64,000 bases of DNA from Verrucomicrobiia bacterium (GTDB lineage Bacteria > Omnitrophota > Omnitrophia > Omnitrophales > Aquincolibacteriaceae), in the NCBI GenBank assembly GCA_035495615.1, contig DATJFP010000088.1:41763-105762 (forward strand), written 5' to 3'. A model generated the notes under the pieces. It saw nothing but the letters and a program-made list of their open reading frames with translations. It was not told the DNA's origin and did not search any database. The translations under genes were made by a program, and so were the position numbers. Within the stretch, counting starts at the first letter, position 1, and each line of letters starts with the position of its first letter. Below, piece after piece: positions 1-3,200 of this stretch.

Positions 1-290
1 AGGCGCGCGCGGCCGCGGAGCGCGCGGTTGATGTCGGTCTGCAGCGCGATCTCCCCTTCCCCGAGGGCTCGCAGGAACTGATACGCGTAGGCCATGACGA
101 TGGGATTGTTCTCGTCGACGGCCGCGGGAATCACCAGCTGCCCGCTGCGCAGGAGCGTCGAGATGTGGCGGGCATAAGCGCGGTAGATCGGGCCCGAGTC
201 GAAAAACTGATAGCCGAATTCCCTGGCCAGAGCCCGGGCGGCTGTCGATTTACCGGCCTGCGCGGGACCCGCGATATTGATGCCTTCGGG
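1..290 (-). other. Cytidylate-kinase-like P-loop NTPase module, in frame within the giant ORF (Walker A GPAQAGKS at 246-269)
   Basis: Codon-by-codon minus translation: ...[52 protein letters not shown]... This matches the Cmk N-terminal signature I(A/D)GPxxxGKST(V)A..LA...G....DxGxxYRA seen in bacterial Cmk proteins. No stop codon separates it from the 1,000 upstream codons I translated. Confidence 0.5.
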
Positions 291-3200
291 CGTTTCCAGA
301 ATCTGGACCCACTGGTCGAGCGCGGCGTCGCGCTTTTCCTTCGGCAGGAGCTGGAGGAACGCGTTCACTTCGGCGGGCAGGTTCTGCGGCTGGACGCGCA
401 TTTCGGCGCGGCCATAGCGTTCGGCCTTGCGGGAAAGGCGCCAGATCTCCGGCGTTACCGCGCCCGGAGCCAGGTCGCCGATCCGCACCTGGATCGCGCG
501 CGACAGGCGCTGAAGAACGCCGGAATCGGTGTGAAAAACGTATTCGGCGCGGGTGAGCAGCTGCCCGAGGCCTTCCAGCGTCACTTCGCGGAGGTTCAGG
601 GCCTCGGCCGGCATCACCGCGAAATCGCCCAGGCCGTTGTCCGCGGCCCAGCGCAGGTAATTCGCATAAACCGAGAGTTCTTCTTCGGAGGTCTTCGGCG
701 GATCGCGTTTGACGATCCTGGCCAGATCGGCGAGCAGTTCCTGGCGCCGGGCTTCGGCGCTTTGCGGGCCGTGCTGCAGGTTGCGCACCAGCGCGTCTTC
801 GCGGCGGAGCCCGAGGCCGGGCACCACGTCGCGGCGCGAACGTTCGTTCAAGCGTCTCATGCTGCGTTCGATCTCGGGATTGGCCGCGGCGCCTTCCAGG
901 ACTTCGGCGGCGGAAACGCGAGCGATCAAGTGGCCGTCGGCGGATTCCTTGGTGGACGGAAGTCCCGGCACGTTCAAAAGCCCATCGTGCAGGTCTTCGA
1001 TGGCGAACGCCGTGCGCGGCGACTGGACCACGAAAGCGCTGAAATTCACCGAAGCCATGCCCGCGGCCGCGATCGCCTCGACATGCGGCCGCAGTCCGGC
1101 GACATATTCAGGATCGCGGTATTCGATATCCCGAATCACGCCCGCGACCGAGGCGATGTTCTCCGCCAGCGGGCCGCGCGTCTTGTAAATCTCATAGATG
1201 TTGGTCAGGCTGGCCATCGAAGGAAGCGTGACCACCCTTGCGTAATCTTCCGGATTGATCTGCTCGATCAGGCGCCGCATCTGGCGGAGCAGAAGGCGCC
1301 GTTCGGTCGAGGCGCGGCGAAGGGCGATCGAGGCCGTGGACTGCGCGGCTTCGCCCTTGGCGCGTCCCTGCGCTTCCTGGGCGTCCCGGAAAGCTTCTCT
1401 CGCGCGTTCGAGGCGCGGCAGGAGCCCGCGGATCGCGATCTGCGTGGTCATCAGTTTGAGGTGCAGCGAAAGCCGGTCAAGATAGTAAGCCAGGTCGTCG
1501 TCGGAAACCGTATTCTCGAGAAGCGCCTCGGTAACGGAACCGCGCAGCCCGAGCGCGGGCCGGTTTTCCAGCTGAAGCACGAGGCCGGACTGCGTCAGCG
1601 CGTAAAGGATCGCGCGCTGGAACGGCAGGAACGCGGCTTCGGCCTGCTCCTGTCCGAGCTTGGTAGTTTTCATGGTCCATTCGCGTCCGCGCGCGTCCGT
1701 GAAATGCGGGAACAGCGCCAGCACGTCCGGCGTATCCGCGGGCGGGATGCGCGTGATGTTTTTCTGCCAGTACCGCACGAACGACGAGGCGTCGAGCATT
1801 TCCGGAACCTGGTTGCTCGAGGTGTAGCTCACCGCGGCCGCGCCCACCGCCTGCTCGAACAGCTTGACCGTGTCGCGGCCGTAAGCGGCCGAGCGCAGGA
1901 ACGCCATGCCGCGGCGCAGCTCGTCGCCGACCGCGCGCACGACGCGCTGGTAAAGTTCGGGGCCGCGGCGCACGGCGCGCATGAGCGCGATCACGTTTTC
2001 GATGTTGTAGTAGCGGCCGCCCGGCGCTTCCGCGTCTTCGGTCGTGCCCAAAAGCTCCGCGCCCGGCTTGCCGTTCAGCCAATCCGAGTACACGCGGCGG
2101 AAGTCGTCGAGATCGATCTGCTTGATTTCGTAGATGAAACGTTCGACCTGGAAGCGGTAGCGGTCGTCCGCAAGTTCGGCTTCCAGCACGCGGTCGATCG
2201 CGGCCTCGCCGGCATTGACGATGAATTCCGCGAGCGTGATCAGGGAACTCGCCAGGCGCACGTCCGAGCCCGTGATAATCACTTCGTTGTGGCGGAAGAG
2301 GAAGGTGTTGAATTGCTGGCGCTGCTTGGCGGTCATGCCTTGGTAAAGGCGGTCGAGGATCGCGGGGTCCGCCTGCGTGATCGTGATCGGCCCGGGCGCT
2401 TCCGCGGTGCGGGACAAGTCTTCCGCGCGGCGCGAGATGCTGTTGGCGATCAGAAGCTCGCGCAGGTAAGAGCCGAGAAGCTTGGGTTCGCTCGCGCGCC
2501 GGATCTGGTTGGTCCTGCCGTCATAGTCCGTCTTATGGCCCAGGTTGACTTCGCTGTACGGGAAGTGCAGGTGGTACACCATACCTTCGATCGCGGTGCG
2601 GAGAAGCGCGTTCGGATCGAACGTGGTTTGTTCGGGCTGCGCGGTTTCCGAGACTTCGTCGAACACGATCCGCTCAGGCGGCGTCAGGCCTTCCTCTTCG
2701 AACCAGCGCCTCACGTCGTCTTCGGTGAGCGGGCCGGCAACAGGAGCGGCCGGAGCGGGAGCGCCTTCGGCCGCCGGCGTCGCCGGAGCCGGAGCCGCGG
2801 GAACGGGCCCGCGCGTTTTCGACCACTGGAACTGGCTTTCGCCTTTGTACGGGGCGGTCTTGGACGCCACGAGAAATTCTTCGACTTTGGCCGCGCCGCG
2901 TGTCTTGCTGAGCATGAGGGCTTTCAGGAAGCCGGTGATGATACCGCCGGAAACGCTGTCCACGAAGCGGATGTCGGTCTTGGGATCGATGCCCGCGGCC
3001 AGGACTTCCGCATAAATGCCCTCGGCGATCCGGTTGAATTCCGGATCCGTGCGCATGCGTTCTTCGAAATACGGCAGCAGCGCGTCGTAGAAGCGGCGTT
3101 CGCGCACCGCGGCGTCCGCCGTGCCCGCCCGATTCTCGCGTTCCTCGTCCTCGCGGAAGAGGCCGCGCACTTCGCCCACCATGCGTTCCATGACCGGGTA

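Follow-up and report, generated by a model that had tools for sequence, protein, structure and literature searches.

A divergent cytidylate-kinase-family domain with a helical partner in a giant protein, most likely from an Omnitrophota-like bacterium

The minus strand of a 64,000-nucleotide stretch of contig DATJFP010000088.1 (the window) carries a giant open reading frame (ORF) whose last codons before the window edge resemble the start of bacterial cytidylate kinase (Cmk). Our analysis indicates that this edge stretch most probably belongs natively to the giant protein as a conserved domain of the Cmk family, and is neither a housekeeping cmk gene nor an artefact. Most likely, the protein comes from an Omnitrophota-like bacterium and has a P-loop domain of the nucleoside monophosphate (NMP) kinase fold built into it. 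New here is a Cmk-family domain that has diverged, keeps a constant helical partner and sits within a giant protein of the Omnitrophota type; it is not an artefact, nor is it a categorically new system.

The Cmk-like stretch and its reading frame

A six-frame scan placed the stretch in a minus-strand frame that is open from window position 48545 to 3, giving 16,181 codons with zero stops, and that leaves the window at position 1 (Table 1). A preliminary description of this DNA had reported no stop in the 1.3 kb that it translated; in fact none occurs in 48.5 kb of frame. Codons are numbered here from 48545, such that codon n spans window positions 48545-3(n-1) down to 48543-3(n-1) and the first Met is codon 6. 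The ATG at 48530 encodes MIDWQTRRAKPWLRTVALLVALIFIV..., a typical N-terminal membrane anchor, and is preceded by an AT-rich region. Collinear homologues of the protein were found at 23-46% identity over codons 10011-16175 (>6,000 residues).

The Cmk-like peptide quoted in the preliminary description lies exactly at minus-strand window positions 281-171, corresponding to codons 16089-16125. An in-frame ATG was also correctly placed upstream of it, at 401-399, with the small correction that the segment beginning INIAGP starts 40 residues after this Met and not 37. The proposed resemblance to Cmk held in a profile search with PF02224 (E value 6.1e-10, 39.6 bits against a gathering score of 26), with the match in the window limited to profile positions 1-38 of 211, which cover the P-loop and the DSGxxYR motif. 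The TIGR00017 (cmk) model matched the fragment with an E value of 2e-10 and 38-41 bits, far under the cut-off of 135.55, which a fragment would not be expected to reach, and the best sequence matches among solved structures were all Cmks (1q3t, E value 3e-6, about 54% identity over 37 residues).

The P-loop sequence GPAQAGKST is the sole G....GK[ST] Walker A motif among the 16,181 codons; compared with the canonical GPxGxGK, its second Gly is Gln, with GxxxxGKST intact. The NMP-binding motif DSGPIYR aligns with the DSGAIYR and DTGAMYR motifs of solved Cmks. Because this Cmk-type DSGxxYR motif comes after the P-loop at the correct spacing, the resemblance is specific to Cmk. A generic P-loop similarity with no specific relation to Cmk would account for the match of only 38 profile positions in the window and for the weak matches to many AAA and kinase P-loop families that were also seen. 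We regard its probability as negligible, given the spacing of DSGxxYR and given that complete relatives of the domain match Cmk from end to end, both by sequence and by fold, with adenylate kinases ranking behind.

Table 1. Features of the giant gene in the window (positions are those of the window)
Feature	Position	Strand	Basis and remarks
Giant ORF	3..48530	-	First Met at 48530, frame open from 48545; 16,176 codons from Met within the window, stop-free
N-terminal 93 residues of Cmk-like P-loop NMP-kinase domain	3..281	-	Codons 16089-16181; PF02224, TIGR00017 and PDB Cmk matches
NMP-binding motif DSGPIYR	180..200	-	Alignment with solved Cmk sequences; equivalent to E. coli/Yersinia Cmk D35-S36-G37-x-x-Y40-R41
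Walker A (P-loop) GPAQAGKST	243..269	-	Regular-expression scan
Conserved, mostly alpha-helical module, ~255 aa	285..1055	-	Codons ~15831-16087; always precedes the Cmk-like domain
In-frame ATG	399..401	-	Internal Met, not a gene start; within the conserved helical module
Cryptic NDK-like domain (predicted)	3726..4472	-	Codons 14692-14940; ~1,150 residues upstream of the Cmk-like domain; alignment A4 and AF2 fold
Weak ARMT1/DUF89-like (damage-control phosphatase) segment	5430..5762	-	PF01937, E value 7e-4 to 2e-3, under gathering score
Polytopic membrane region, ~17 hydrophobic segments	10266..14471	-	Codons 11359-12760; Kyte-Doolittle 19-residue scan
Weak PP2C_2 phosphatase-like segment	33888-34160	-	E value 5e-5

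A helical and Cmk-like module shared with large metagenomic proteins

The window edge cuts the domain, leaving about 93 of its roughly 220 residues inside and about 130 more expected past position 1, and we therefore turned to relatives for the analysis of the whole domain. An exhaustive HMMER search with the last 1,200 residues of the ORF against 1.84 billion representative proteins gave 45 matches. Among these, P0012, P0015, P0016, P0031, P0032 and P0002 have, directly ahead of a Cmk-like domain, a mostly helical region of about 255 residues, and the same arrangement is present in P0009 (5,136 aa) and in the cluster members P0046 (5,887 aa, clustered with P0015) and P0048 (clustered with P0032). 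At least eight metagenomic proteins carry both parts, the Cmk-like domain being full in these, one of them (P0002; NCBI MCX5666743.1, 2,379 aa) from a Candidatus Omnitrophota metagenome-assembled genome (MAG). P0046 is collinear with codons 10843-16175 of the window protein at 23-46% identity, covering the polytopic membrane region and all later conserved blocks, and the ORF upstream of it matches window codons 10011-10690. The edge of the window protein aligns with P0046 residues 5335-5681, and the domain of P0046 extends to approximately residue 5810.

A word-index protein search with the last 600 aa of the ORF gave no match, and neither did back-translated scans of genome and metagenome contigs with the last 400 aa. 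When alignment A1 was run as a profile against the word index, P0015 alone was recovered. Scans with alignment A3 gave, in genomes, only an ordinary-looking cmk P-loop in one Verrucomicrobiae MAG (L002) and, in metagenomes, none.

The helical region of the window is 26-32% identical to its counterparts in seven relatives (alignments A1, A2 and A3), with the shared motifs SPR, YxxYLxWA, A(I/V)xP, AEYVFxxDS and LWxxW. It matches no known family in a Pfam scan, and its counterpart in P0012 is helical in an AlphaFold2 (AF2) model with a predicted local distance difference test (pLDDT) score of 80-89. The two parts most likely form a fixed module, of a ~255-aa helical region and a ~220-aa Cmk-like domain, that lies within a membrane-anchored protein of >16,176 aa and recurs in related giants.

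In the complete relatives, the PF02224 match extends over nearly the whole profile (P0012, positions 1-205 of 211, E value 1.3e-19; P0002, E value 1.9e-22), and the domains align end to end with solved Cmks. The AF2 model of the P0012 module, built from an eight-sequence alignment, has a pLDDT of 80-90 over residues 121-507. A Foldseek search of the PDB with this model returned bacterial-type Cmks as all of the top 21 hits (TMt 0.69-0.80), with adenylate kinases only after them. Full-length family matches, alignment with Cmks and the Foldseek result together establish the Cmk fold and family for the module.

The preliminary description had offered two alternatives, namely that the giant protein carries a nucleotide-kinase-like domain, or that a housekeeping cmk has been fused to the giant ORF or is read through into it. 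Our results favour the former. The same module occurs in frame in independent large metagenomic proteins, and since the fusion of helical and Cmk-like parts is kept at 26-32% identity in independent samples, it is not an assembly accident of this contig. Base composition points the same way: the giant gene has a GC content of 61-67% and a GC content at third codon positions (GC3) of about 0.8 in this frame throughout, compared with 48-56% and 0.62-0.73 in the sixteen flanking genes (48.8-64 kb), and window positions 3-401 (GC 0.66, GC3 0.835) have the signature of the giant gene, unlike the flanking genes. Coding periodicity is continuous as well, with the pattern of GC across the three codon positions (GC1/GC2/GC3) falling in the same frame in 30 of 32 overlapping 180-nucleotide segments from 3002 to 33 and no intergenic-like dip.

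A housekeeping cmk could have been joined to the giant ORF by a stop or frameshift missed in sequencing or assembly, by stop-codon read-through or by a very recent gene fusion. The strong N-terminal Cmk signature would fit such a joining, as would the in-frame Met 40 residues upstream and the stops and frameshifts seen in the assembly of a related locus (L001, described below). We consider it very unlikely. The stretch matches the giant gene in GC and GC3 and not the housekeeping neighbours, periodicity is unbroken, and the Met has no Shine-Dalgarno-like motif ahead of it, although many flanking genes have one. Instead of a separate gene of ~220-230 aa with its own start, we found 16,088 stop-free codons upstream of the domain and an upstream sequence that is conserved as part of the module, its 255 residues being the partner of the Cmk-like domain in at least eight independent proteins. 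Finally, the complete relatives are not cmk equivalogs: their scores are far short of the equivalog threshold, and neither Asp132 nor Arg188 is present in them (see below).

The preliminary description had also spoken of a C-terminal-region domain, a label that was not confirmed and is probably wrong, given that more than 3,700 residues follow the domain in two relatives. In P0009, about 3,700 further residues come in the same frame after the Cmk-like domain, which occupies approximately residues 1170-1400. In L001, a locus on an ENA contig, P0046 ends 75 residues after the domain and homology to the next conserved domain goes on in the +1 frame, in an ORF of >3,821 aa. This downstream ORF has no counterpart in the 16,181 codons of the window, as expected if the window gene continues past position 1. 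P0002 ends inside the linker. We think it probable that the ORF of the window continues substantially past the edge, which would make the domain internal and not terminal. The giant frame of L001 is itself interrupted at 2384-2449 and 20113-20193, once by an in-frame TAA, after which the same frame is open, and once by a +1 shift, across which homology continues; these interruptions could be sequencing errors, pseudogenization or recoding.

Predicted activity of the Cmk-like domain

Bacterial Cmks (PF02224, TIGR00017; 1q3t, 1kdo/2cmk, 4e22) have in common the P-loop GxxxxGKST and the motif DSGxxYR, both of which are seen in the window, and the complete relatives add the same whole fold, a Cmk-type NMP-binding insert and the LID arginines. 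Unlike Cmk, which is a standalone protein of ~225 aa, the domain described here is embedded in an ORF of >16,000 aa, always with the ~255-aa helical module ahead of it. On the complete relatives, TIGR00017 gives 52-73 bits, under half of the equivalog cut-off.

To compare individual residues, we used a MAFFT alignment with the Cmks of Yersinia (4e22) and S. pneumoniae (1q3t). The relatives retain G12, G17, K18, T20, D35, Y40, R41, R110 (five of six relatives), R131, R154, R157 (mostly), R181 and D185 (all four relatives that reach the position). Asp132 is replaced by Gly in all six complete or near-complete relatives, and Arg188 by Glu, Asn or Ala in each of the four relatives that extend to it. 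Every relative has a four-residue deletion after GRG(Y/F), Ser101 and Arg158 are not conserved, and Ser36 varies (A, E or I), with the window itself having S36, Y40 and R41. In P0048, N and F take the place of S/T and T after the P-loop Lys. In Cmk, Arg41 and Arg131 bind phosphates; Arg110, Asp132 and Ser36 hydrogen-bond the cytosine; and Arg188 and Asp185 contact cytidine diphosphate (PMC3603445). The R110A, R131A and R188A mutants are inactive, R188A abolishing the cytidine monophosphate (CMP) kinase activity of Yersinia Cmk (PMC3603445).

Because the residues for phosphoryl transfer and phosphate binding are kept and those of the base pocket are altered, the domain is most simply read as kinase-like with an altered choice of acceptor. 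On the basis of these sequence comparisons, it could well be that the domain binds ATP and phosphorylates an acceptor other or broader than CMP. The data do not establish it as a functional equivalent of Cmk.

Two other predictions were weighed against the same residues. The domain is perhaps, with a clearly lower probability, a nucleotide-binding but non-catalytic module, that is, a catalytically dead pseudo-kinase that serves as a nucleotide-binding sensor or as a structural or oligomerization part of a giant scaffold. Such a role would be in line with the loss of base-specific residues, the four-residue deletion beside the GRD motif, the lack of conservation of R158, the N and F after the P-loop Lys of P0048 and a giant protein that is largely without recognizable enzymes. 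However, the Walker A Lys, R41, R131, R154, R181 and D185 are kept across relatives that share only 26-36% identity overall, which argues for selection on phosphoryl-transfer chemistry and not on the fold alone.

The second prediction is a fully functional (d)CMP kinase tethered to the giant protein, perhaps replacing a standalone cmk in the manner of the bifunctional proteins PanC-Cmk, AroA-Cmk and Cmk-Der. The P-loop and the S36, Y40 and R41 of DSGPIYR in the window would suit it, and so would the R110, R131, R181 and D185 of the relatives, the name '(d)CMP kinase' given to MCX5666743.1 by the NCBI pipeline and the precedent of bifunctional Cmk fusions as known NCBIfam families. We find it improbable all the same: the cytosine-binding D132 is Gly in all six relatives, the R188 whose substitution by Ala kills Yersinia Cmk is absent wherever the alignment reaches it, S36 itself varies, and scores of 52-73 bits fall far short of 135.55. 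PanC-Cmk (NF010004), AroA-Cmk (NF008816) and Cmk-Der (NF007071) likewise have a Cmk-family domain covalently fused to other functions, but they are two-domain housekeeping enzymes of 500-700 aa with a canonical Cmk, and their partner sequences are unrelated to those found here; our proteins score 27-56 bits against these models, which have cut-offs of 524-953.

The domains around the Cmk-like domain bear on what it may do. The protein has a conserved C-terminal cassette (codons ~13557-16181) that is common to P0001, P0002, P0003, P0004 and P0046, and that in relatives contains ARMT1-like (E value 1e-9), weak PolyA_pol head, CofD/YvcK-like and FBPase_2 domains. The PF01937 match that is weak in the window reaches an E value of 1e-9, above the gathering score, in the collinear relative P0001. 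Permissive Pfam scans of codons 13500-15840 added nothing.

The cassette of the window also has a candidate nucleoside diphosphate (NDP) kinase (NDK)-like domain, and a further NDK-like copy comes immediately after the Cmk-like domain of P0009 and of L001. The copy in the window has motifs reminiscent of NDK, namely VLKGG (VLKGGEFGG...), GPAxTExAPxGTLR and ANG(I/V)H, and its AF2 model (pLDDT 89.4, predicted template-modelling score 0.85) matches NDKs best: the top five hits of a Foldseek search of the PDB were all NDP kinases (probability 0.95-1.0), with E values of only 5e-3 to 0.1. The domain differs from NDKs by about 100 extra residues in helical insertions and has no sequence-profile significance. 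A sequence-profile comparison with the PDB was negative, and hhalign against three NDK sequences gave a probability of 5%, although the expected motif aligned. A Lys, an Arg, an Asn and a His are invariant among seven homologues (alignment A4), at positions that we take to be K12, R105, N115 and the catalytic H118 of NDK. It is only the fold search on the predicted model that points to an NDK.

An NMP-kinase-like and an NDP-kinase-like domain in one cassette suggest, though they do not demonstrate, local phosphorylation of nucleotides. Together with the NDK-like, DUF89-like and nucleotidyltransferase-like domains of the cassette, the Cmk-like domain may belong to a local unit for nucleotide phosphorylation or handling. 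A bolder version, which we think doubtful at best, has the cassette as a self-contained, membrane-tethered nucleotide-handling machine, in which nucleotides would be phosphorylated or scavenged on the spot by the successive action of an NMP kinase of altered specificity and an NDP kinase. The Cmk-like domain would in that case found an NMP-kinase subfamily of its own, one whose substrate is not CMP. Such a machine would consist of nucleotidyltransferase-like, DUF89 phosphatase-like and cryptic NDK-like domains together with the helical and Cmk-like parts of the module, after which relatives have a further NDK-like and an HD-like domain, and phosphorylation or scavenging could occur at the host contact site of an epibiotic or predatory Omnitrophota cell.

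The taxon of the source was judged from the flanking genes. Flanking proteins of the window are 100% identical to NCBI HTL48598.1, HTL48602.1, HTL48604.1 and HTL48612.1, which are encoded on a 121,398-bp contig of a TPA MAG, and the next-best homologues from named organisms, as judged for FadD, at about 50-61% identity, are nearly all from Candidatus Omnitrophota.

Several points weigh against a native, internal and catalytically competent domain in an Omnitrophota-like protein. NCBI labels the source MAG Verrucomicrobiae and not Omnitrophota, a label that is perhaps in error or lacks resolution. P0012 possibly stops about 15 residues past the domain, which makes a C-terminal position possible, and L001, with its in-frame stop and frameshift, shows that assemblies can contain broken giant ORFs of this family; an assembly error may also lie at or beyond position 1. 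With 93 residues of the domain in the window, relatives at 26-32% identity are the guide to D132, R188 and the LID positions, as well as to where the domain ends and where this gene stops. The activity of the domain is predicted, and since hydropathy alone does not decide the side of the membrane, the ATP-dependent domain may or may not face the cytoplasm.

The giant protein and its surroundings

A Pfam search of all 16,181 residues found only the weak PP2C_2 and ARMT1/DUF89-like segments and the Cmk N terminus, with no HEAT, GT, TPR or dockerin domains. The polytopic membrane block is the best-conserved part relative to P0046 (36-46% identity). The hydropathy scan further placed single hydrophobic segments at codons 17-35, 3562, 7127 and 8946-9004.

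Giant proteins with tiled enzyme-like domains, the 'Archaeovorins' among them, have been described in Omnitrophota (West-Roberts et al., bioRxiv 10.1101/2023.11.21.568195; bioRxiv 10.64898/2026.06.07.730766), and the statement in the preliminary description that both of its alternatives would be unusual was accordingly too strong; an enzyme-like domain within such a protein is no longer surprising in itself. The window protein resembles these giants in its ORF of >10,000 aa, N-terminal transmembrane anchor, internal transmembrane segments, internal tandem repeats and tiled housekeeping-enzyme-like domains, kinases and phosphotransferases included, and its closest relatives come from Omnitrophota. 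Among the described classes, the 'multi-enzyme metabolic cluster' class includes kinases and phosphotransferases, and Pfam-dark proteins make up 15% of the long ones (bioRxiv 10.64898/2026.06.07.730766). In contrast to the classes with many Pfam enzymes, the HEAT/GT/TPR Archaeovorin class and the dockerin class, the window protein has three weak or partial Pfam matches in 16,181 aa, and it fits better among the Pfam-dark 15% of the 2026 preprint. A cytidylate-kinase domain is not mentioned in the main text of either preprint or in one supplementary file of the 2026 preprint, and no paper among those searched pairs cytidylate kinase with Omnitrophota or with giant proteins.

Public names make the module an annotation trap. 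Multi-thousand-residue relatives are named '(d)CMP kinase [Candidatus Omnitrophota bacterium]' (MCX5666743.1) or, in the JGI record of the 587-aa P0012, the name is 'cytidylate kinase', despite scores of 61-73 bits for these two against the 135.55-bit equivalog cut-off. With such names, the synthesis of pyrimidine nucleotides could be scored in error when the metabolism of Omnitrophota-like MAGs is reconstructed. The module is also one of the few recognizable catalytic handles in an otherwise Pfam-dark protein of >16,000 aa and, alongside the NDK-like domain, it hints at a stretch of the giant protein that is concerned with nucleotides. An expressible fragment of about 480 aa makes a nucleotide role directly testable, and the joined helical and Cmk-like sequence offers a marker with which this giant-gene family can be found and aligned across fragmented assemblies.

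The giant gene (window 1-48530) lies about 10 GC points above the neighbouring housekeeping genes (48800-64000), and only its first ~2.5 kb (46-48.5 kb) grades to the GC value of the flank. Plus-strand ORFs across 1-48500 (for example 165-5825; up to 1,940 codons) were rejected as genes; they are antisense shadows of the high-GC3 minus-strand gene and could be miscalled as genes. The giant ORF (window 3-48545, minus strand) has no cysteine codon among its 16,181, against about 100 expected from the flanking-gene frequency (0.63%) or about 159 from position-specific base composition. Strong depletion of Cys extends to the homologous giant proteins, with 0.02-0.2% in the closest relatives. On the minus strand, window positions 38166-41498 (codons ~2350-3460) hold a ~167-aa protein repeat in tandem array, its copies being 45-65% identical to each other; weaker copies reach codon ~4650 and others lie at codons ~1770-2040.

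Directly upstream of the giant gene on the same strand, beyond an AT-rich spacer of ~270 bp (48531-48796), genes for a response regulator, a PAS histidine kinase and a second response regulator occupy window positions 48797-51243 (minus strand), and these may regulate the giant gene.

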